A DNA stretch of 64,000 nt from the NCBI GenBank assembly GCA_047946875.1, contig CP181398.1, positions 649,041 to 713,040 of the forward strand, read 5' to 3'. The notes beneath the pieces were generated by a model that did not search any database, was not told the origin of the DNA, and worked only from the letters and a program-made list of their open reading frames with translations. This DNA is from Candidatus Kerfeldbacteria bacterium (GTDB taxonomy: Bacteria; Patescibacteriota; Patescibacteriia; UBA10025; JAHIVO01). A program made the translations under genes and the position numbers. Within the stretch, counting starts at the first letter, position 1; each line of letters starts with the position of its first letter. This document shows positions 2,852-12,833 of this stretch, one piece after another.

Positions 2852-3092
2852 TTAATTATTATTCTCAACCCCTCCTTCATCCCCTCCTCAATTGAGGAGG
2901 GGAAAGGCATACACTATAAATATAACCATTTCATGGTGAGAGGTGGTGGAGTAAACAAAAAATCCCCATGGTTATTGGGGAAAGTATTATATATGTAAAT
3001 TACGATATTTTTATCTTCTAGTCAATTAATTACGATTTAATGTTTCTGGCATACATAATTTTACCTTTTATTAACAATAAACGAAAAAACAC

Positions 3093-3159: not shown

Positions 3160-3531
3160 TTGAACAGTGAACAATTAGTCCAACAAGTGCGTGATGGAGA
3201 TATTATGGAGTATACTCTGACCGGCGACATCGACGACCTTGTCGTGGACATGCTCGATTTCGCCATTACTTCCGAAAAAAACGAACATGAACTGCACCTG
3301 GTCAACCTGACAGCAGTCACCTCAATTACGGACTATGCAATCGGAAAATTCATCCTGATCCGAGAGATCCTGGATATTAAAAAGGAAAAGCTGGCTCTGA
3401 CACTGGGTGGCAGAGAACACCCACTTCTCGAGCGGCTAGCCTGTGCGTTTATGAACAAACAGGTTTATATCTACCCTTCAGCGGAAAAAGCGGTTGAAGT
3501 ACTACACCGCCCTCAGACTACTTCGACCTAA
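3160..3531 (+). CDS. STAS-domain-like protein (anti-sigma-factor-antagonist fold)
   Basis: 123 aa; TTG start 7 nt after an AGGAGG ribosome-binding site; GC-rich relative to surroundings; LTGDIDDLVVDML...LVNLTAV.SI.DYAIGKF resembles a STAS domain. Confidence 0.4.
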   Translation: MNSEQLVQQVRDGDIMEYTLTGDIDDLVVDMLDFAITSEKNEHELHLVNLTAVTSITDYAIGKFILIREILDIKKEKLALTLGGREHPLLERLACAFMNKQVYIYPSAEKAVEVLHRPQTTST

Positions 3532-3559
3532 CTCGAAATTCCCGGCTAAAAACAAACCA

Positions 3560-3590
3560 AGCTCGGCGTAACATCACCGAGCTTTTTTAT
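3560..3590 (+). terminator. rho-independent terminator
   Basis: AGCTCGG...CCGAGCT stem followed by a T-run. Confidence 0.6.
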
Positions 3591-3679
3591 TTATGTCTTG
3601 TAATCCGTCTACTTTTTTATCATCTTCTGGATTGTGACTTAATGTTTCTGACATATATTTGTATTTTTGATATAATTCT

Positions 3680-4771
3680 TCATTTATCATACCTCCCTAT
3701 CTCCTCCTTTATTGTCCTAGCAACTACTTCCGGATCCTGCTTTTCATCGAAAAATATATTATGATAATGCGTATTATCTATCCCCAGCACCCTCAACACT
3801 TCCCATACTTTATTCTGTTGATCTTTGAATGCCTCAGGCAATACTACCAAATGAGTAATATCTAGATTCTCTTTCTTAATATAAGATGACGCATCAAGTG
3901 CCTCACATAACCACCGTCCATTAGTCGTACGCAGAGGTATCTCACCATAGGCAGGGTTCTCAGCATCGGGGTTAGTAAAATATATAGCCTCCCCTTTCCG
4001 CCTGATATTCCCATTAGCCTCCAACTGTTTAACTAGTTCCTCTGCCTCAATTATCTTCTCACTTTCTGAGATCAATAAATATTCCTTACCCTCGGTGGCA
4101 TCTTCTGACATTACCCCTTTTTCTTTTAACAAACCTTCTACACTTCTTTTAAAATTTTCTTTTACCCCATCTGACAGTTGCAACTGCGGAGCATCAAGTG
4201 GATCTCCTTTTTCAGTAGTTATTGCATGACCCTGTTCATCTGTCTGTATTTTTTTTGGCTTACCTAACAGATCCGTAGCATCAGGCATATCCGTATTATA
4301 TTCATCATAAAGAGATATCAACCTAGCCTTGGGGAATGATTCCGTTAATGTCTTCGCCACCTCTATCCCCACCTTATCCGTATCAGTCAGCTTATCCGAC
4401 CATATCTTACCACTAGATAGATCATAATCCGCCAAGTAAGGGCTAAATGACTCAAACTCCACCTTACGACCACTTCGATAATCTTCCAGGATTTCATTCA
4501 TTTGGCATAAGGAAAAATCCACGCCTTCACGCATGGCTTCTTTTGATGCTTCCTCTATTTCTTCATCCAATTTATATTTCAATTGCTTATCTCCAGCAGC
4601 TATACTAAAAGCACTTTTGAATTTATCTCTAATACCATTCAATATCTTTCTGATTTGCGAAGGACTTTTCTCCTCTTCTGTTTCAACTTCTGGAGAATCA
4701 TAAACCACCTCGGTCCTTTCAACCTCGTCGTTCCGCTCCACCTCTGGATTGTGCTTTAATGTTTCTGACAT
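3680..4771 (-). CDS. acidic hypothetical protein; probable third gene of the ATPase/DUF4276 operon
   Basis: 363 aa, Glu/Asp-rich N-terminus, no recognisable domain; starts 27 nt downstream of the DUF4276 stop on the same strand. Confidence 0.5.
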   Translation of the reverse strand: MSETLKHNPEVERNDEVERTEVVYDSPEVETEEEKSPSQIRKILNGIRDKFKSAFSIAAGDKQLKYKLDEEIEEASKEAMREGVDFSLCQMNEILEDYRSGRKVEFESFSPYLADYDLSSGKIWSDKLTDTDKVGIEVAKTLTESFPKARLISLYDEYNTDMPDATDLLGKPKKIQTDEQGHAITTEKGDPLDAPQLQLSDGVKENFKRSVEGLLKEKGVMSEDATEGKEYLLISESEKIIEAEELVKQLEANGNIRRKGEAIYFTNPDAENPAYGEIPLRTTNGRWLCEALDASSYIKKENLDITHLVVLPEAFKDQQNKVWEVLRVLGIDNTHYHNIFFDEKQDPEVVARTIKEEIGRYDK

Positions 4772-4797
4772 TTAATATTATAGTTATATTTCAATAT

Positions 4798-5490
4798 TTA
4801 TCTACTGACAAAAGAATCAACCTCTGTAATAAATTCATTTAAGCTATTAATCTTAGATTTAACAGATAAATACAATTCGCTATAATCTAATGCTTTGATA
4901 GTTCTTTTTATGCTATTTTCAGTCTTTGTATATCTTAATCCCACAATTTTATATATATCGTCTAAATCTATTGATGGATGACTTCTACTCTCTGGATTAT
5001 CTCTAAAAGGATCAAAATCAACACCAGTGCTTACAAGTGATTCTGTAAGAGAAGGATGAATTTTTCTATAATGACTTACCTCACCTAAAAACCATGCTTC
5101 CACTTCCATAATCGCTAGTACAATCTTTATTGGGATATATTTAGTTGGAACACGGGTAGATAGACCCATTTTTAAAGCTGGAATTTCAGCATGCGTAAAT
5201 GGATATACATCTCTTAACCCTATGATCCTATCGTAACCGCTTTCTGATAACTTTTCACAATGCTCAATAATGTCCGATTTAACACTTGAGTCTCCGCCAC
5301 AATCACGTATTAAAACATAATATTCCTTTTTAGGATTAATTGATTTTGCTTCAATTATTGTTAATAAATTTTTTTCAAATCTTTTTGTTTTAGATACTGT
5401 AATATTATTTTGACCAATAACTTCAATTAATAGCCTTTCTGAAAAAATTTGTTCTGTTTTACCCTCGACAAATATTGCTAACTTTTTCAT
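4798..5490 (-). CDS. DUF4276 family protein (Toprim-like)
   Basis: 230 aa; N-terminal KLAIFVEGKTEQIF plus IRDCGGD look like a Toprim Glu and DxD motif; 4-nt overlap with the upstream ATPase gene. Confidence 0.65.
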   Translation of the reverse strand: MKKLAIFVEGKTEQIFSERLLIEVIGQNNITVSKTKRFEKNLLTIIEAKSINPKKEYYVLIRDCGGDSSVKSDIIEHCEKLSESGYDRIIGLRDVYPFTHAEIPALKMGLSTRVPTKYIPIKIVLAIMEVEAWFLGEVSHYRKIHPSLTESLVSTGVDFDPFRDNPESRSHPSIDLDDIYKIVGLRYTKTENSIKRTIKALDYSELYLSVKSKINSLNEFITEVDSFVSR

Positions 5491-6629
5491 TTAATATTTT
5501 CATCTCTTAAATAAAAATTATTTGTAAAGAAATCAAAATTATTAAGTCCAGTATATTTAAATTCATCAAATAGCTTCTTAGAATTTTCATAATTAAGGAT
5601 ACTACATTTTCCTCCTACTCTATTAATAATAAGCCATAACTCAATTGGGATATCATTCATGACAAAGCGATCATTCGTAGTCATTATTAATTGAGCGGGT
5701 GAATCATCAATTTTTTTCATTAACAATTTAATAAGTGCTTGAGATCTCTCAAAATCTAATCCTTCACCAATATCATCAATGAGTATACAGGTAGGTGTTG
5801 ACTCTAAATGTGAGTAATTCAATTGAATAACCAATGACAAAGCTCTAAACATACCTTGAGAGATATCTTGTTGGTTTGTTATTCCTTCAAGATCTTTTTC
5901 CTTAACTGATAAACCCTTTGCCTCTATCTTCATCCCAAAATCAGATATAATTGGTATAGTTTCTAAAAAAATATTTTCTAATTGATAATTAATTTTCTTC
6001 ATATCCTTTCTGATTACATTTACAAATTTCTGACCATATTTTTTTTGACCTGCATCAAAAATATCAATTAGTCTGTTTATATTTTTTAAATTAATTTTTT
6101 CAATATTTTTATTTTGATTAATTCCTGAAACCTGATCTTTCCCCATTTGACTTCCAAATGGATAATAAAGAGTTTGCTTTCCCCATTTATATAGGTCATT
6201 AAAAAATGGGTGCTGAATTAAATCTTTCCTTACTACACAGGCTAATTCATTATTCGATACTTGAAAATCAATACTTTTTTTAAGTTGTACTGCAAATATT
6301 TTTCCTTTACCATTACCCTTTCTTTCTAGAAATTTCTTTTTATCTACTATGAATTCTTCTTTTAGTACTTTAGAATTTTTATATTTCAAAATATATTTAA
6401 CAATTTGTTTTCCATTCTCAAATTCAATTTCATAATTTCCTGAATTATATATTAATTTTTGATCACCAGAAACTAATGCAGCGAATGCATTTATAATATT
6501 TAATATTCTTGTTTTACCTGACGCATTTTTTCCAACAAGTAAATTTTTCTTACCAACGTTAAACTTTTTAACATGCCATGCTTTGGGCGTATTTTCAAAT
6601 TGACTATACTTGATTGATTTTAATATCAT
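5487..6629 (-). CDS. AAA_21/AAA_15-type ABC-like ATPase (OLD/PARIS AriA-like)
   Basis: 380 aa; Walker A GKNASGKT; C-terminal ILIDDIGEGLD Walker B/D-loop and TTND H-loop. Confidence 0.7.
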   Translation of the reverse strand: MILKSIKYSQFENTPKAWHVKKFNVGKKNLLVGKNASGKTRILNIINAFAALVSGDQKLIYNSGNYEIEFENGKQIVKYILKYKNSKVLKEEFIVDKKKFLERKGNGKGKIFAVQLKKSIDFQVSNNELACVVRKDLIQHPFFNDLYKWGKQTLYYPFGSQMGKDQVSGINQNKNIEKINLKNINRLIDIFDAGQKKYGQKFVNVIRKDMKKINYQLENIFLETIPIISDFGMKIEAKGLSVKEKDLEGITNQQDISQGMFRALSLVIQLNYSHLESTPTCILIDDIGEGLDFERSQALIKLLMKKIDDSPAQLIMTTNDRFVMNDIPIELWLIINRVGGKCSILNYENSKKLFDEFKYTGLNNFDFFTNNFYLRDENIK

Positions 6630-6674
6630 ATATTTATTTATTTACTAATCTAAATCTAATCCATTTTTAACTTT

Positions 6675-6700
6675 AAATCAACCCTGCCATTTACCCTCAC
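6675..6700. repeat. partial copy (A1) of the ~75-bp island repeat
   Basis: AAATCAACCCTGCCATTTACCCTCAC matches 25 of 26 nt with the start of repeats A2 and A3; lies about 45 nt upstream of the ATPase start. Confidence 0.7.
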
Positions 6701-6722
6701 AAATATCCCAGAATATCTTATT

Positions 6723-7829
6723 TTATTTTCCTGACTTAGTTCGATTATCCTGTTTACACAACATTTGACAATTTTTTGCTGTTGTTTTACCTCCTTCATG
6801 CCATGGATCAATGTGATCAGCTTCCATTTCAGAAATATCCCACTTCTGTTTCTTTTTGTTCTGCTTTTTGCAATCAGGACATACACCCTTTTGCCTCTCA
6901 TACGCTTCTCGCTTCATTTTATCGGTGAACGCGCGAATAGAAAGGTGCTTCTCCTGCCCTGTGAGTACATAAGGATAGATACCATATTTTTTTGTCACAT
7001 CCTCATCCTGCATCAATTTAGCAATTTCTGTTTCAAGTTTTTTTACACTTAATTTATTATCTTTGAATTGATTATATAGTTCTCCCCAATTCACGCTAAC
7101 CATTTCTTTACGATAATTTGTAAAAGTCTTTCGCACCCATTCAATCACATCTTGAAAATATCTCCACAACTCGTCAGCGTTTTTATCGTGTTGGTGTTTG
7201 GCCATGTAATCTTCTATCTTACCTTCGTTGATCCAGAAAAGTGCAGTTTCTAAATAATCTTGTCGTATTGGTGATCCACTTACCAAATGTCCTCCGTCAT
7301 TTGCTAAAAGATATGCTGCACAGTTTGATTTACTAAATTTCAATTTAGCATCACTTAACCATGGCCCCGTATAAACCGCATTGCGTAACTCTTGGTCGGT
7401 CAATTTTTCACCTGCAATATTAATAATCTTGAACCAATCAAGTCGCTCCCGATCTGTACCTTCGCACCAGTAAATCATAAGTTCATAATTCAAAATCTGA
7501 TCTTGTTCCTCATCTGTTAAATTATGAAAATACTTTTCATCTAGTGAAAAATCACCATTTACATATTGACCGATACTAATAGTACGCTGTTGACCATCGA
7601 GCATTTCGAAACCATCCTCATTCTTCAACCAATACATCACATTAAGTGGAAATTTTTGTTTGATGGATATTATAACTTCTTTACGTTGTTTGTCATTATA
7701 GACAAATTCGCGTTGATACTTAGGGCGAATATCGAGCTTGCCACCATATGCCACAACACCTTCTTCGGCGCTGTCTTTATAATCAGCGATTACTTCACGC
7801 ACAGAGATTCGATGTAGTTCAATTTTCAT
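6723..7829 (-). CDS. DUF262 (ParB-like DGQQR nuclease) with C-terminal HNH endonuclease domain
   Basis: 368 aa; DGQQR motif at about residue 80; C-terminus ADHIDPWHEGGKTTAKNCQMLCKQDNRTKS is an HNH motif with CxxC. Confidence 0.75.
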   Translation of the reverse strand: MKIELHRISVREVIADYKDSAEEGVVAYGGKLDIRPKYQREFVYNDKQRKEVIISIKQKFPLNVMYWLKNEDGFEMLDGQQRTISIGQYVNGDFSLDEKYFHNLTDEEQDQILNYELMIYWCEGTDRERLDWFKIINIAGEKLTDQELRNAVYTGPWLSDAKLKFSKSNCAAYLLANDGGHLVSGSPIRQDYLETALFWINEGKIEDYMAKHQHDKNADELWRYFQDVIEWVRKTFTNYRKEMVSVNWGELYNQFKDNKLSVKKLETEIAKLMQDEDVTKKYGIYPYVLTGQEKHLSIRAFTDKMKREAYERQKGVCPDCKKQNKKKQKWDISEMEADHIDPWHEGGKTTAKNCQMLCKQDNRTKSGK

Positions 7830-7830
7830 A

Positions 7831-8874
7831 CTATTTTTTTACTTTCTTATTTTTTATAATAATTCGTGCATAAGTAACATTAACAATACCATTTACAATC
7901 ATATATAAATCACCATCAACAGCACCTCTTTTTTGAATTTCCTTCCTATATTTTTTATGCTCTTCTTTGTATCGTTTAACTCCAATTTCTATTCCTGAAT
8001 TAGATATACCTAAACCAATAATCTCGAATTGTTTCGGATTATATTTATCGAGAAAAGTGATTGGCACACCCATATCACCGCCATAGTCATAAGGGATATC
8101 AGTGTATTTATTTACATTAATTGCGTTATAGTTTTCATATTTAGGATATTCCTCAGATTTATATTTTTTATAAAGTGTAATATTCTCTTTATGTTTATCA
8201 ACTTCTAAGTTAGTGAACCAACATGAAGTTGATACACGAGCAATTTTATTACCACTCTCATCAATATGATGAAACTTTTCCCAATCTTCTGGTACAATAA
8301 AAAACATACCAACATTAAAATTAGTGTAGCCAGTTCGAATTCTATCCTCCTTAAATAGTTTGAAAATTTCCTTATAAGTCATTGAATTAGTATTGCCAAT
8401 AATCAAAAACTTTTTATCATATTCTCTCAGCTGTGCAACATACTCGCGAAACAAAGAAAAGGGCGGATTAGTTACGACAATATCAGCCTCTTTGAGTAGA
8501 TCTATACACTCATCGCTACGAAAATCACCAGTGCCAATCATCTCGGTTATGAATTCTTCTGGATCAGGAATACGGTTGCCATTTTTATCACCAGTATATT
8601 CCAATTTATAAGGTTGTTCTTGGGTAAATAAGCTTGCTTCTTTGTAATGTGTAGCAATCAATTTTTTCAATCCTAAATGTTCAAAATTCATGCTGAAATA
8701 CTTGACGAAATTACTTTCTTTCGGATCATCGCAGTTACAAAAAACTACTTTGCCACGAAATTGATCTTTATAATGTTTTAGCTCTTTTTCAATATCAGAG
8801 AGTTGAGTGTAAAATTCGTCTTTCTTTTCTTTGCTTGCTTTGTGCAAATTTTTATTTGAAGATTTTTTTTTCAT
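7831..8874 (-). CDS. EcoRI-family N6-adenine DNA methyltransferase
   Basis: 347 aa; N-terminal KNLHKASKEKKDEFYTQLSDIEKEL...VVFCNCDDP and DIVVTNPPFSLFREY closely parallel M.EcoRI as I recall it. Confidence 0.75.
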   Translation of the reverse strand: MKKKSSNKNLHKASKEKKDEFYTQLSDIEKELKHYKDQFRGKVVFCNCDDPKESNFVKYFSMNFEHLGLKKLIATHYKEASLFTQEQPYKLEYTGDKNGNRIPDPEEFITEMIGTGDFRSDECIDLLKEADIVVTNPPFSLFREYVAQLREYDKKFLIIGNTNSMTYKEIFKLFKEDRIRTGYTNFNVGMFFIVPEDWEKFHHIDESGNKIARVSTSCWFTNLEVDKHKENITLYKKYKSEEYPKYENYNAINVNKYTDIPYDYGGDMGVPITFLDKYNPKQFEIIGLGISNSGIEIGVKRYKEEHKKYRKEIQKRGAVDGDLYMIVNGIVNVTYARIIIKNKKVKK

Positions 8875-8900
8875 AAATTAATATTCCAACTTTTTTATTT

Positions 8901-8980
8901 AAAATCAACCCTGCCATTTATCCTCACCCCCCACACACCAATTTCACCTATAAACTATGGGGTAACCTTGTTTTTAATCC
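8901..8980. repeat. island repeat copy A2 (~80 bp)
   Basis: Near-identical to A3 (9186-9260) over about 70 bp; sits about 20 nt upstream of the methyltransferase start. Confidence 0.8.
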
Positions 8981-9064
8981 ATAATACACTTTTGAAAATA
9001 ACTTTAAGTTTTTCTCTCTTTTTCGAGCATCTTTTTCGGAAGAATAAGCTTCATAATAATATAT

Positions 9065-9169
9065 TTATGGTGAAAATAAAATTACAGCCATAACCACTAC
9101 AAAAATAATTACAAATAATACTATTCTTTTACCTGTACCACCAATCCAAAATTTATTATATTTTTCCAT
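9065..9169 (-). CDS. 34-aa single-TM peptide (MEKYNKFWIGGTGKRIVLFVIIFVVVMAVILFSP)
   Basis: Hand-translated; a repeat copy (A3) lies immediately upstream, as for the neighbouring genes; below the ORF-track length cutoff. Confidence 0.3.
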   Translation of the reverse strand: MEKYNKFWIGGTGKRIVLFVIIFVVVMAVILFSP

Positions 9170-9185
9170 ATTAGATAAATTTTAA

Positions 9186-9260
9186 TTACCCCTGCCATTT
9201 ATCCTCACCCCCACATACCAATTTCACCTATAAACTATAAGGTAACCTTGTTTTTAAACA
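9186..9260. repeat. island repeat copy A3 (~75 bp)
   Basis: CCCCTGCCATTTATCCTCACCCCCACA(C/T)ACCAATTTCACCTATAAACTAT..GGTAACCTTGTTTTTAA shared with A2; overlaps the 3' end of the RhuM ORF. Confidence 0.8.
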
Positions 9261-9680
9261 CCAATTCTCTAAACACCTTTTTAAATGAAAACTTTTATTA
9301 ATAATGTAGCCATCAATCATATGCTGTTTTAATACCTTTGTCGCCCAAATACGAAATTGCGTAGCGTGTTTAGAATTAACGCGATAACCTACAGAAATAA
9401 TTGCATCAAGATTATATAAATTAACATCACGCTCTATATATCGTTTTCCTTCTTTTTGAACTATCCGGAAATTCCGGATAGTTGCTTTATCTGTTAATTC
9501 ACCTGTTCTATAAATATTTTTTAAATGCTCATTAATCGTACGTACATCTACATCGAAAACTTCAGCGATCTGCTTTTGAGATGCCCAAATAGTCTCTAGA
9601 TTAAAATCTCCACGAAATTCAATTGCTCCAGTTTTAGCCTGGTAAATAACAATATTTTTAATAGATTTATTTTTATTCAT
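9228..9680 (-). pseudogene. 3'-truncated RhuM-family (virulence/Fic-associated) gene
   Basis: 150 aa versus about 330 aa for the family; homology (IVIYQ..G.IEF...ETIWASQKQIAEVF...QFRIWATKVLKQHMIDGY) ends where repeat A3 begins; the last ~24 residues are read from sequence in and next to the repeat. Confidence 0.6.
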
Positions 9681-9744
9681 ATTATGTTAAAATGGTCTTT
9701 TAATTTTTAGTTCTTCATAATAACTAACCAAATTGATGTTAGGG

Positions 9745-12700
9745 CTAACCTTCCCACTTGTCTTCGCAGATTTCTTTAAAATCACAGGTCTTACACCAGA
9801 AGCCTGGATTTGCCTTAAAATCACTCTTCCTTATTTCCAAGATCTTATCTACTAATTTATCTTTCAATTTATCAAGTTCAGAATCCTTAGCAGTAAATGA
9901 GATCGGTTGATTTGCATTAACATAAAGATAAGTTAACTTAGCTGGTTTTAGTTTAAGAATATCCTTAGCAGCTAATGCATAGATCATCAACTGTTCTTTC
10001 TCATCCACTGACAACTTACCATTTTTTGGAACTTTACCAGTTTTGTAATCTATAATTTCTACTCCAGCGGAGCTGGACCCCGGTTTGCGGGGATCATTTC
10101 CATTAACATCACCAATTGGGTCTACTCTATCTATGACCCCTTTGAATGTATGTTCACCTAGTTTCAAATGAAATGGTTGTTCTAAGAATAATGGTACTGG
10201 AAAATCACCAGCTAATGAATCGTAATACATCTTCAATGACTCTCGACCCTGTTCATAATATTCTTCTTTATGCTGAACTGACAAATACCAATCCTCTATC
10301 CACTCTTGCTCATACAGTCCCATTAGTTCATCAAAACCAATTTTGACTTGGCCTTTGGCTGATCGATCTTGTACCATTTTGAAAAACTTAAATAAGGTAT
10401 TGTGAATTGTCTTACCATAACTAAACATATGCTTACCTTCTACTGGTATACGTAATAGATGTGCGTATTTGAATTGCTTAGGACAATTTTTGAAAGCCCG
10501 AAGTTGAGTATAGCTTGATTTCTCTGGAATTACTTTTCGTAAGTAATCTAACTCTTTAATTTTCTCTTGTTTAACATTATCGGTAGCTTTGAGTCTTTCT
10601 GTCTTATCTACCTCCCCTGTCCCTTTCTTCACTTCGAAACCAGTCTCGATCAAAAATCTGGATGGTTTTTTCTTGCGAGAGCCACCGTAATCATCTGCGG
10701 AAGTAAAATATAATCCCTCCTTAGCTCTGGTCATCGCTACATAGAATAATCGTCTCTCCTCCTGCAAATGAATATCCCCTTCTGGGATAATTTCTTTTAC
10801 CAATTCATCAGGTAGTTCAATCGGCTCTTTTCTTTCTATGGTTGGGAATCTTTTATCAACCAAATTTACTATAAATACATTTTTGAATTCCAATCCCTTA
10901 GCGCCATGAATAGTCATGATCTTAACTGCATCAGGCCCTTCATCCCAAGTTTGATTCATCGATCCAGATTCCCCTGCATCCTGAGATTGCTCAAATTCAT
11001 AAAGAAAATTCTTAACTGACTTATCATCATTAACTGCTTCAAAATCCTCTATCTTCCTGAAGAACTGATTAAGATGAATTATGCGTTCCATATTTTCTGG
11101 ACTATCTTTTGCAGTGATCTCTTTGAAATATCCAGAATCTTTCATAAATCTTAGAGCTACTGATAGTACATTTTTATCTCTAGTTAGCTGGGTATGCTTC
11201 TCTATCATGCCTAAGATTTTCTCAATGACATGATGTCCGCTTGATGAAATGCCAGGAATCCCTCTAACTTGTCCCATTGCTTCAAATAATGACATACGCT
11301 TCATAGCTGCATAACGTGATATAGACATCAGATAATCAGTTGGCAATTTAAACTGCTTAAAATTGAGCACTCTCCACATAGCAGCGCTCTCATGATAGTT
11401 ATCCAACATTTTCATATAGGCTACGATATCCATAATCTCTGGTTGACCATACAAACCTTTGGATGCCAAAAACTGATGCGGTATGTCTAGACGTGATAAT
11501 GAATTTATAAACTCCGCAGCGTATGAATTTGCCCTGATCAGGATAGCAAAATCACTCCATAATAATTTTCCGGCAGAGCCGGATCCCGCTTTGCGGGGCT
11601 TATTTCCAGTTTTCAGTTCTAATATTTTCTTAGTAACTCCACTTGCTTCGTCTAAATACGAATTGAAATGTAGATGCCGAATAACACCATCTTTACCAAT
11701 AGCTGATTTTAGCTTCTTACTTATTTTATTCTTTAGTGGAGCGCCCTTGGGATCTATCTTCCCTTTGGTCAGCTGATACTCAAGACGATTTGGGTCATTC
11801 TGTTTAATAAATTTATATGACAAATCTAGGATATTTTGTTTGGTACGATAATTGTCAGTTAGCACAATCTCATCAGACTCAGGAAAATCTTTTTTAAATT
11901 CCAAAATATTACTAATAGCAGCACCACGAAATTTATAGACAGATTGGTCATCATCCCCTACTACTGTAAGATTATTTTTTGGAGCAGATAATAATTTGAT
12001 TAATTCATACTGTGCGTAATTAGTATCTTGAAACTCGTCTACCAATATGTATTTGAACTGTTCTTGATATTTCTTTAATATTTTTGGACGCGTCTTGAAT
12101 AGCTTAATGGTATAAAGTATCAGATCACCGAAGTCCATGGCACTATTTTCTAACAGCAACTGCTGATAAACCTTGTAAGCATTAGCTACTTCCTGAACTC
12201 TTTTGTCTTCTGAAATTTCTTCGTCAACATCATCCTGACTACTATCTGGCTTTAGCTTATTAGCATATTCAATATATTCATCAGGTAATATGTTCTCATC
12301 TTTGGCTCGAGAAAAATGCCTAACTAAGGCTTGAACAAACTTGGTTGGATTACCTAAAGGACGATAGTAATCAAGATCAAATTTATCAAAATTCTTTTGA
12401 ATTAATAGAACTTGGTCTGTAACACTCAATAATTTAAAGTCAGGCGGTAAGCCAATCTCCAAGGCATTATCTTTCAATATTCTTTCACAAAAAGCATGAA
12501 AGGTAGATACCCAAAGATCAACATATCCCATTGGTAATAATACATCTATCCTCTCTTCCATCTCAGCCGCTGCTTTCTCTGTAAAAGTCAGAGCTAATAG
12601 ATGGTCAGTGTTTATCTTCTTCTCTAATATTAACCAAGCTATTCTCTCTGTAATCACGGTTGTTTTGCCAGTACCCGCTCCTGCTACAATTAGCAAAGGA

Positions 12701-12759
12701 CCCTCACCAAATGTGACGGCTTTTTTCTGGGCAGGATTAAGATTATCAGTAATGTTCAT
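9745..12759 (-). CDS. UvrD/PcrA-type SF1 helicase fused to a C-terminal PD-(D/E)XK (Cas4/AddB-like) nuclease
   Basis: 1004 aa; Walker A GAGTGKTT, helicase motifs, C-terminal EIIDYKTGK and a Cys cluster (C..C......C). Confidence 0.8.
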   Translation of the reverse strand: MNITDNLNPAQKKAVTFGEGPLLIVAGAGTGKTTVITERIAWLILEKKINTDHLLALTFTEKAAAEMEERIDVLLPMGYVDLWVSTFHAFCERILKDNALEIGLPPDFKLLSVTDQVLLIQKNFDKFDLDYYRPLGNPTKFVQALVRHFSRAKDENILPDEYIEYANKLKPDSSQDDVDEEISEDKRVQEVANAYKVYQQLLLENSAMDFGDLILYTIKLFKTRPKILKKYQEQFKYILVDEFQDTNYAQYELIKLLSAPKNNLTVVGDDDQSVYKFRGAAISNILEFKKDFPESDEIVLTDNYRTKQNILDLSYKFIKQNDPNRLEYQLTKGKIDPKGAPLKNKISKKLKSAIGKDGVIRHLHFNSYLDEASGVTKKILELKTGNKPRKAGSGSAGKLLWSDFAILIRANSYAAEFINSLSRLDIPHQFLASKGLYGQPEIMDIVAYMKMLDNYHESAAMWRVLNFKQFKLPTDYLMSISRYAAMKRMSLFEAMGQVRGIPGISSSGHHVIEKILGMIEKHTQLTRDKNVLSVALRFMKDSGYFKEITAKDSPENMERIIHLNQFFRKIEDFEAVNDDKSVKNFLYEFEQSQDAGESGSMNQTWDEGPDAVKIMTIHGAKGLEFKNVFIVNLVDKRFPTIERKEPIELPDELVKEIIPEGDIHLQEERRLFYVAMTRAKEGLYFTSADDYGGSRKKKPSRFLIETGFEVKKGTGEVDKTERLKATDNVKQEKIKELDYLRKVIPEKSSYTQLRAFKNCPKQFKYAHLLRIPVEGKHMFSYGKTIHNTLFKFFKMVQDRSAKGQVKIGFDELMGLYEQEWIEDWYLSVQHKEEYYEQGRESLKMYYDSLAGDFPVPLFLEQPFHLKLGEHTFKGVIDRVDPIGDVNGNDPRKPGSSSAGVEIIDYKTGKVPKNGKLSVDEKEQLMIYALAAKDILKLKPAKLTYLYVNANQPISFTAKDSELDKLKDKLVDKILEIRKSDFKANPGFWCKTCDFKEICEDKWEG
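10064..10104. repeat. GC-rich palindromic in-frame mini-insert, copy 2
   Basis: CCAGC-GGA-GCTGG followed by CCCCG-GTTTG-CGGGG; encodes NGNDPRKPGSSSAG on the gene strand. Confidence 0.6.
11570..11609. repeat. GC-rich palindromic in-frame mini-insert, copy 1
   Basis: CCGGC-AGA-GCCGG followed by CCCGC-TTT-GCGGG; encodes TGNKPRKAGSGSAG; about 80% nt identity to the copy at 10064. Confidence 0.6.
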
Positions 12760-12786
12760 AACATTATTTTATCAAAAAAACCAACG

Positions 12787-12833
12787 TTTGTCATACATCA
12801 TACCTTGACAAAAAGTATGAAACAGTATACGAT
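12787..12833 (+). promoter_or_regulatory. promoter with an operator-like inverted repeat TTTGTCA-N12-TGACAAA over the -35
   Basis: 26-nt block identical to 13090-13115; TTGACA at 12805, TACGAT at 12828. Confidence 0.5.

Follow-up and report, generated by a model that had tools for sequence, protein, structure and literature searches.

In this work, we examine a stretch of 64,000 nt from Candidatus Kerfeldbacteria bacterium (GenBank assembly GCA_047946875.1, contig CP181398.1), termed here the window, and in particular three consecutive genes on its minus strand that had been read, from the sequence alone, as one operon encoding a candidate three-component defence system. We find that the region very probably holds two independent things: a mobile cassette made of an ABC-type ATPase gene and a DUF4276 gene, and a vertically inherited third gene that lies at the edge of a hotspot. 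The three open reading frames (ORFs) are present as described, and they are real genes because each has many homologues with very low E-values (147, 873 and 3656 matches, the best outside their own genome at E = 1e-191, 1e-76 and 1e-132). The features on which the argument depends are the following.

5487-6629, minus strand: ABC-type ATPase gene (AAA_21 family, 380 aa)
4798-5490, minus strand: DUF4276 protein gene (230 aa), with an OLD-type Toprim fold
3680-4771, minus strand: third gene (363 aa), outside the module; conserved Patescibacteria gene whose product is predicted to have a class I aminoacyl-tRNA synthetase (aaRS)-like catalytic fold
4772-4797, minus strand: spacer of 26 nt between the DUF4276 stop codon and the ATG of the third gene
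3559-3584, minus strand: terminator-like hairpin with a stem of 10 bp and a T-run after it, downstream of the third gene

The ATPase and DUF4276 genes overlap by 4 nt (ATGA), as the sequence-only reading had it, and the gap that it put at 27 nt before the third gene measures 26 nt. The motifs that it had listed (GKNASGKT and ILIDDIGEGLD in the ATPase, VEGKTE and RDCGGD in the DUF4276 protein) are all there.

The neighbourhoods of the pair and of the third gene

The distribution of the pair was surveyed from the DUF4276 side, in 80 loci from a metagenome scan and 4 genome loci, which gives 84 ATPase-DUF4276 loci. According to searches with hidden Markov models (HMMs), 76 of the 80 metagenomic loci have an ATPase gene directly upstream in the same orientation, and in the 4 others the upstream sequence is shorter than 105 nt. 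The same 4-nt overlap was found in the 4 genome loci, which come from Deltaproteobacteria, Cyanobacteria, Paceibacterota and another metagenome-assembled genome, and an overlap of the two ORFs is usual among the loci as a whole. The two genes are therefore strictly paired, being adjacent and co-inherited in these 76 + 4 loci, and the 4-nt overlap suggests that their translation is coupled. When all the ORFs of the 84 loci were clustered, the only recurrent families were two, the ATPase and DUF4276; the gene found 3' of DUF4276 differs from locus to locus, is unrelated and is often on the opposite strand. The third protein, searched by HMM and by tblastn, gave no match in any of the 84 loci, 42 of the 80 metagenomic ones having at least 1100 nt of downstream sequence, and so room for a third gene. 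Outside their own genome, the closest homologues of the pair reach only about 55% identity and are spread across many phyla, a patchy distribution that is consistent with horizontal transfer of the pair.

The converse survey started from the third gene and covered 20 genome loci, with flanks of up to 10 kb, and two close relatives (L021 and L022). Neither tblastn nor HMM searches found an ATPase or DUF4276 homologue in any of these 22 loci, and an all-against-all clustering of the ORFs of the 20 genome loci gave no conserved neighbour and no immunity-like partner of the third gene. The sequence-only reading had presented the 363-aa protein as a novel third partner, and had itself put forward this neighbourhood survey as a check. 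The claim does not survive it, as none of the 84 pair loci carries the third gene, none of the 22 third-gene loci carries the pair, and the third gene is thus not conserved beside such pairs.

The boundary between the two elements can be located by comparison with the two close relatives. The DNA homology with L022, whose orthologue of the third protein is 82% identical, covers positions 3689-4795 of the window, which means that it spans the spacer and ends at the DUF4276 stop codon. The homology with L021, in which the third gene is 75% identical, covers positions 3729-4779, breaks off and is found again at the UvrD gene (9752-12796), which encodes a UvrD/PD-(D/E)xK helicase-nuclease. From these breaks we place the variable island of the window at about 4796-9745. 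It is set in a conserved backbone with the order orf13207, UvrD, a variable segment, the third gene, a second variable segment, DciA, a membrane protein and PheS. L021 has the same backbone, and its slot of about 5 kb is filled with unrelated small ORFs and a response-regulator gene. In L022, the third gene is directly preceded by two genes, which encode an oligonucleotide cyclase (PADLOC, E = 7e-80) of the cyclic-oligonucleotide-based antiphage signalling system (CBASS) and a NucC endonuclease (E = 4e-71). The base composition changes at the same place: the GC content is 26.0% for the ATPase gene, 29.7% for DUF4276 and 40.0% for the third gene, with a window mean of 34.0%, and this jump between the pair and the third gene supports different histories for the two sides. 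We therefore read the third gene as a conserved, vertically inherited Patescibacteria gene that borders a variable defence hotspot; it would lie at the edge of a hypervariable slot that related genomes fill with different cargo. Its short distance to DUF4276 is then explained by the point at which the cassette was inserted.

A -10-like TATAAT lies 5 nt before the ATG of the third gene, inside the part of the spacer that is homologous to L022; as a consensus match only, it is suggestive, since the promoter scan returned 40 sites against 34 expected in shuffles, which is not above background. Below the ATPase gene, the hairpin at 3559-3584 is the only strong terminator-like site on the strand, a weaker one of 6 bp being located inside the third gene (4536-4519).

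The ATPase-DUF4276 pair and its relation to known systems

The ATPase matches Pfam AAA_21 (E = 4.5e-8, 34 bits against a 27-bit cut-off), and this search places it among the ABC-type ATPases of the AAA_15/AAA_21 group, in agreement with the sequence-only reading. An alignment of 19 homologues shows as invariant the Walker A motif (G33-K39), Q139, the signature S257-Q-G259, the Walker B residues D285-D286 followed by G-E289-G-L-D292, and a T-N-D at 318-320 that occupies the usual position of the H-loop His. Its PADLOC matches are AbiLi (4e-21), AriA (7e-14), mad3 (1e-8) and HEC-01A (2e-8, the best at 1.7e-8). The AriA match is taken as generic, because the AriA model (304 positions) agrees with Pfam AAA_21 both in length and in the range matched.

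The 230-aa protein matches Pfam DUF4276 at E = 2.5e-7, with 31.5 bits where the cut-off is 30.2. The family alignment contains six invariant acidic residues (E9, E13, E23, D94, E129 and E131), and fold comparison links the protein to OLD and to AriB; a profile search of the PDB with the DUF4276 alignment returned nothing, so that the link to OLD and AriB comes from the fold comparison only. The protein opens directly with the Toprim strand and has no inactive-PIN N-terminal domain. It is thus a protein of its own, encoded next to the ATPase, that combines a Toprim fold with a conserved acidic metal site, and the Toprim-like call made from the sequence was correct. The assignment of RDCGGD as the Toprim DxD is less convincing, since this motif comes after the second core strand and not the third, and since its Asp63 is an Asn in about one quarter of the aligned family; on sequence, either D94 or D63/D67 may be the Toprim DxD.

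From these features, we infer that the ATPase acts as the sensor or regulator subunit of a two-gene module and the DUF4276 protein as its nuclease effector. The pair would be a horizontally mobile cassette in which an ABC ATPase is translationally coupled to a protein of the OLD-family Toprim nuclease fold. If the pair works as OLD, PARIS and AbiL do, the two proteins would form a complex in which the ATPase, as a dimer or an oligomer, probably senses a trigger and either retains the Toprim subunit or gates it. Once released or activated, the Toprim protein would cleave nucleic acid, either DNA or tRNA, by means of a putative metal-binding cluster formed by E9, E13, D94, E129 and E131, and the pair may serve in defence. 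In PARIS, AriA forms a hexameric scaffold, Ocr is the trigger and tRNA is cleaved.

The closest description of such a unit is that of HEC-01, a PADLOC candidate composed of an ABC ATPase, once mis-annotated as AAA, and a small TOPRIM protein that has the OLD metal-binding site; it was found within Hma systems (Payne et al., bioRxiv 10.1101/2024.01.29.577857). Like HEC-01, the pair is a two-gene unit of an ATPase and a TOPRIM protein, and its two proteins have weak or partial matches to the corresponding models, HEC-01A and HEC-01B. DUF4276 has been explicitly assigned to the Toprim superfamily in the literature, with Mad4 as a homologue; it has also been described as the C-terminal effector domain of NsnC in Menshen, and the PARIS paper includes it among the partners of AAA15/21 ATPases. 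The ATPase-DUF4276 pair is thus a divergent member, from the candidate phyla radiation (CPR), of a candidate kind that was already catalogued as HEC-01, as Mad3/Mad4 and as the Menshen NsnC domain.

The pair differs from each of the better characterized systems. AbiL (AbiLi with AbiLii, an RloB-type Toprim protein) shares with it the two-gene arrangement of an ATPase and a Toprim-superfamily partner, and AbiLi is the top PADLOC match of the ATPase; however, this match covers profile positions 68-251 of 326, and the partner belongs to DUF4276, not to RloB, and has no AbiLii match. PARIS combines AriA with AriB, a DUF4435 protein, whereas the effector found here is DUF4276, has neither a DUF4435 match in Pfam nor an AriB match in PADLOC, and resembles AriB at the level of the fold only. 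In OLD and in Gabija GajA (classes 1 and 2), the ATPase and the Toprim domain are fused in one polypeptide, while they are encoded here by separate genes; Gabija also needs the GajB helicase, and the GajA models match only about 70 residues. The UvrD-like gene, 3 kb upstream, was considered as a GajB-like partner and rejected, as it is a conserved backbone gene (73% aa identity) in L021, which lacks the pair. MADS Mad3/Mad4 and Menshen NsnB/NsnC likewise associate an AAA15/21-type ATPase with a DUF4276 Toprim domain, but both are larger systems. For MADS (mad1-8), the NCBIfam model antiphage_MADS3 reaches only 14.9 bits against a cut-off of 420, and there are no other mad matches among the neighbours; the ParBDB domain of NsnA, DUF3696 and the inactive-PIN domain that belong to Menshen are missing here. 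The view of the pair as a split OLD-family nuclease like PARIS or Gabija GajA accordingly stands for the split OLD-like pair, and not for membership in either of these two systems.

Several points weigh against the reading of a mobile defence cassette beside an independent gene. The neighbourhood survey rests on a sample of about 100 loci, many of them on short contigs. The strand scan found no terminator-like site between DUF4276 and the third gene; with this, and a gap of only 26 nt, read-through into the third gene is plausible, so that co-transcription of the pair and the third gene in their own genome is likely and a local functional link keeps some room, although such read-through by accident of insertion is no evidence of partnership. 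HEC-01 gave no protection in E. coli against the phages tested (bioRxiv 10.1101/2024.01.29.577857), and its models match weakly and partially (E = 1.7e-8 for HEC-01A, E = 4e-5 over 35 residues for HEC-01B), which makes the pair a divergent subfamily with respect to the HEC-01 that was tested. The family of the pair is absent from the 50,697 phage records searched and occurs on only 2 of the 72,556 plasmids searched. A distant pair was also observed inside a Bacteroides capsular polysaccharide locus, flanked by the genes of a tyrosine kinase and of a sugar transporter (locus L111, at 4935-6726 of the Bacteroides finegoldii plasmid NZ_OY725969.1); its DUF4276 homologue, 28.6% identical over 97% of the query, adjoins an "ATP-binding protein", in a setting that is unusual for a presumed defence module.

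The lack of protection by HEC-01, the phage and plasmid counts and the capsule locus, together with the toxin-antitoxin genes that often neighbour the pair in other genomes, favour the explanation that the pair is not anti-phage at all and is either a selfish module of the addiction type or a DNA/RNA housekeeping nuclease that resides in variable regions. We consider this unlikely. Indeed, the patchy distribution across phyla, with identities of at most about 55%, indicates horizontal transfer, the pair lies between a restriction-modification system and a slot where a relative has CBASS, and its closest validated relatives (AbiL, PARIS, OLD, Gabija and MADS) are all defence systems.

The next explanation would enlarge the module on its upstream side, the DUF262/GmrSD_N-HNH protein (6723-7829), the ATPase and DUF4276 forming a trio similar to the NsnA-NsnB-NsnC sensor, transducer and effector of Menshen. 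The order on one strand of a DUF262 protein, an ATPase of the ABC type and a Toprim effector is the same as in Menshen, whose NsnC has DUF4276 as its effector domain, and PADLOC NsnA matches the DUF262 part (E = 6.7e-25), the NsnB match on the ATPase being weak (E = 2.5e-5). However, the DUF262-HNH protein is already partnered: it is a full-length Type II restriction endonuclease match (7.5e-128), 1 nt away from an EcoRI-type methylase, and 37-nt direct repeats set this endonuclease-methylase pair apart as a unit. Moreover, no upstream family recurs in the 84 loci, 31 of the 80 metagenomic ones having at least 2.4 kb of upstream sequence, and tblastn with the endonuclease found no relative in 89 such loci; the DUF4276 protein has no inactive-PIN N-terminal domain, and the ATPase has no DUF3696 match. 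Such a trio is hence decidedly improbable. A Menshen- or MADS-like reading that would include both the DUF262-HNH protein and the methylase was also rejected, on domain content and on the lack of such neighbours in the 84 loci.

The weakest explanation, a three-component system in which the acidic 363-aa protein would be a new accessory, sensor or effector of the ATPase and DUF4276, is favoured by the common strand, the 26-nt gap without an intervening terminator-like site and an aaRS-like fold beside a Toprim nuclease that recalls the tRNA-cleaving PARIS, but it is hardly tenable given the two surveys (0 of 84 and 0 of 22), the 75-82% identical orthologues that have CBASS or unrelated genes upstream at the same place of the backbone, the exact stop of the homology at the DUF4276 stop codon and the GC difference of 10-14 points.

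The predicted fold and the family of the third protein

The third protein was described as very acidic and without a recognised domain, and both descriptions were right, the partner role attached to them being the part that was lost. Its pI is 4.69, with 78 Asp and Glu against 50 Lys and Arg; it has no match in Pfam, NCBIfam or PADLOC and a match at chance level only in PHROGs, and neither phmmer nor a profile search against the PDB sequences gave anything meaningful. The family is strongly conserved: across 24 sequences that are 38-75% identical, 29 positions are invariant. The predicted model (mean confidence score, pLDDT, of 88.4) matches the catalytic domains of class I aaRSs, and the protein can be assigned on this model to the Rossmann-fold catalytic domains of the class I type.

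It nevertheless departs from the class I aaRSs in its expected functional positions, where no invariant His or Lys is found at the places of HIGH and KMSKS. There is no Lys among the 29 invariant and 24 nearly invariant residues, the only conserved His are H307 and H337, both in late strands, and the segment before helix 130-145 keeps D132 and G135, not HIGH. Neither HIGH, nor KMSKS, nor an anticodon-binding domain was found in the protein, and the chain stops some 25 residues past its last core strand. The nearest known counterparts of the protein are the class I aaRS catalytic domains and their paralogues MshC, GluQRS/YadB, BshC and the cyclodipeptide synthases, and it shows no sequence-level similarity to any PDB chain.

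An exhaustive profile search recovered 172 representatives of the family among 1.84 billion, a small family that matched no Pfam or NCBIfam model. Nearly all belong to Patescibacteria, and a few to Actinomycetota. The domain is fused to methyltransferases of the NNMT/PNMT/TEMT type in at least 9 representatives, and to GNAT or Fic domains in others. Three proteins (P0405, P0444 and P0420) carry N-terminal WXG100-like domains, with the domain of interest at their extreme C-terminus; P0444 comes from Sphaerisporangium flaviroseum, and the 1137-aa P0493, in the same cluster at 90% identity, is annotated as a "CpnT-like N-terminal domain" protein. Giant members carry HopA1, HEAT/TPR, GGDEF or metallophosphatase domains, and the family extends to P0412, a Nocardia protein of 6643 aa. 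In the WXG100/CpnT-like proteins and in the giant ones that contain HopA1, the domain holds the extreme C-terminal place that normally belongs to toxin domains.

As a lead rather than a result, these fusion contexts suggest an enzymatic domain of the effector or toxin type. We tentatively propose, as one possibility among others, that the third protein is the stand-alone form of an undescribed domain, with a class I aaRS-type Rossmann fold minus HIGH and KMSKS, and that it may represent a new enzyme of the effector or toxin type, with tRNA, aminoacyl-tRNA or an amino-acid-like metabolite as its substrate, which CPR bacteria living as episymbionts would possibly use. It is much less likely, to the point of being scarcely credible, that it has been recruited functionally by the upstream ATPase/Toprim pair in its own genome. 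A literature search for such an aaRS-like family in Patescibacteria or among polymorphic toxins returned nothing specific.

The third gene is also bracketed by direct repeats. A 39-nt repeat at 4743-4781 covers its start, including the ATG and the first 10 codons (MSETLKHNPE), and a second copy, 85% identical, lies just downstream of the gene at 3626-3664, where it opens a mini-ORF of 26 codons (MSETLSHNPEDDKKVDGLQDINKKAR, then a stop codon) that ends at the terminator. This second copy is found in neither L021 nor L022, and a third, weaker copy is located 600 nt further, at 3024-3062. The repeat may be the remnant of a duplication or the scar of a recombination event.

The restriction-modification neighbours and the hotspot

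Upstream of the pair, the variable island of the window contains the following features.

6723-7829, minus strand: Type II restriction endonuclease candidate (GmrSD_N/DUF262 and HNH), part of a restriction-modification cassette
7831-8874, minus strand: EcoRI-type adenine methyltransferase
9228-9680, minus strand: RhuM-like gene truncated to its N-terminal part (150 aa), with a 3' end that enters a repeated element
6664-6700, strand unassigned: 37-nt direct repeat, with other copies at 8891-8927 and 9172-9208

The endonuclease candidate is a full-length match to PADLOC REase_II, with Pfam matches to GmrSD_N (1e-14) and HNH (2e-10), and the methyltransferase matches Pfam EcoRI_methylase (E = 3e-126) and PADLOC MTase_II (E = 9e-114). 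With this EcoRI-type methylase and the GmrSD_N-HNH protein, the defence island that had been claimed beside a restriction-modification-like module is confirmed. The RhuM-like gene matches Pfam Virulence_RhuM over profile positions 1-65 of 252 only, and PADLOC PDC-S05 at 1e-53.

The 37-nt repeat is present in three copies, two of which bracket the endonuclease-methylase pair, and a longer repeat of about 100 nt is present in two (8891-8990 and 9172-9270). These repeats look like the junction scars of cassette insertions. The third copy enters the truncated RhuM ORF and supplies its last codons (...KTRLPYSL, then a stop codon), and the copy at 8891-8990 follows a sequence that, by eye only, resembles the 3' end left over from a small gene of the GIY-YIG type (...YYEAYSSEKDARKREKNLKLFSKVYYGLKTRLPHSL, then a stop codon).

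The window carries at 2447-2851, on the minus strand, a gene for a DUF559 protein (a Vsr-like endonuclease), of which C-terminal fragments of 20-50 residues are found at three intergenic junctions in the variable region of L021 (5225-5293, 7891-7944 and 9852-10007), one of them directly upstream of the third gene. Cassette boundaries in this lineage may accordingly be marked by small endonuclease genes or by what remains of them. Between the terminator of the third gene and the DUF559 gene, a GC-richer stretch contains an ORF of 123 aa (3160-3531, plus strand), antisense to the main direction of the genes; it has no Pfam match and no homologue in L021 or L022, and can only be called a putative gene.

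The slot extends from the UvrD/PDDEXK gene to the aaRS-like gene, at about 4796-9745 in the window, 4858-10000 in L021 and 1-3354 in L022. In the window, its cargo consists of the RhuM fragment, the Type II restriction-modification pair and the ATPase/DUF4276 pair, and in L021 its ORFs (of 283 aa, 383 aa and others) are uncharacterised and without a PADLOC match. This slot, between UvrD and the aaRS-like gene, looks like a defence hotspot of CPR bacteria.

With respect to the three-gene proposal from which we started, little is changed by the Kerfeldbacteria pair itself, which adds a divergent CPR member to a known kind. Its surroundings are more informative. Across three related Kerfeldbacteria-like genomes, the different cargo of the slot marks out a defence hotspot in a CPR lineage whose defence islands have been poorly charted, and the ORFs that occupy the slot in L021 are candidates for new systems. 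The family of the third gene, with its class I aaRS-like fold and its toxin-like fusion contexts, merits a study of its own.

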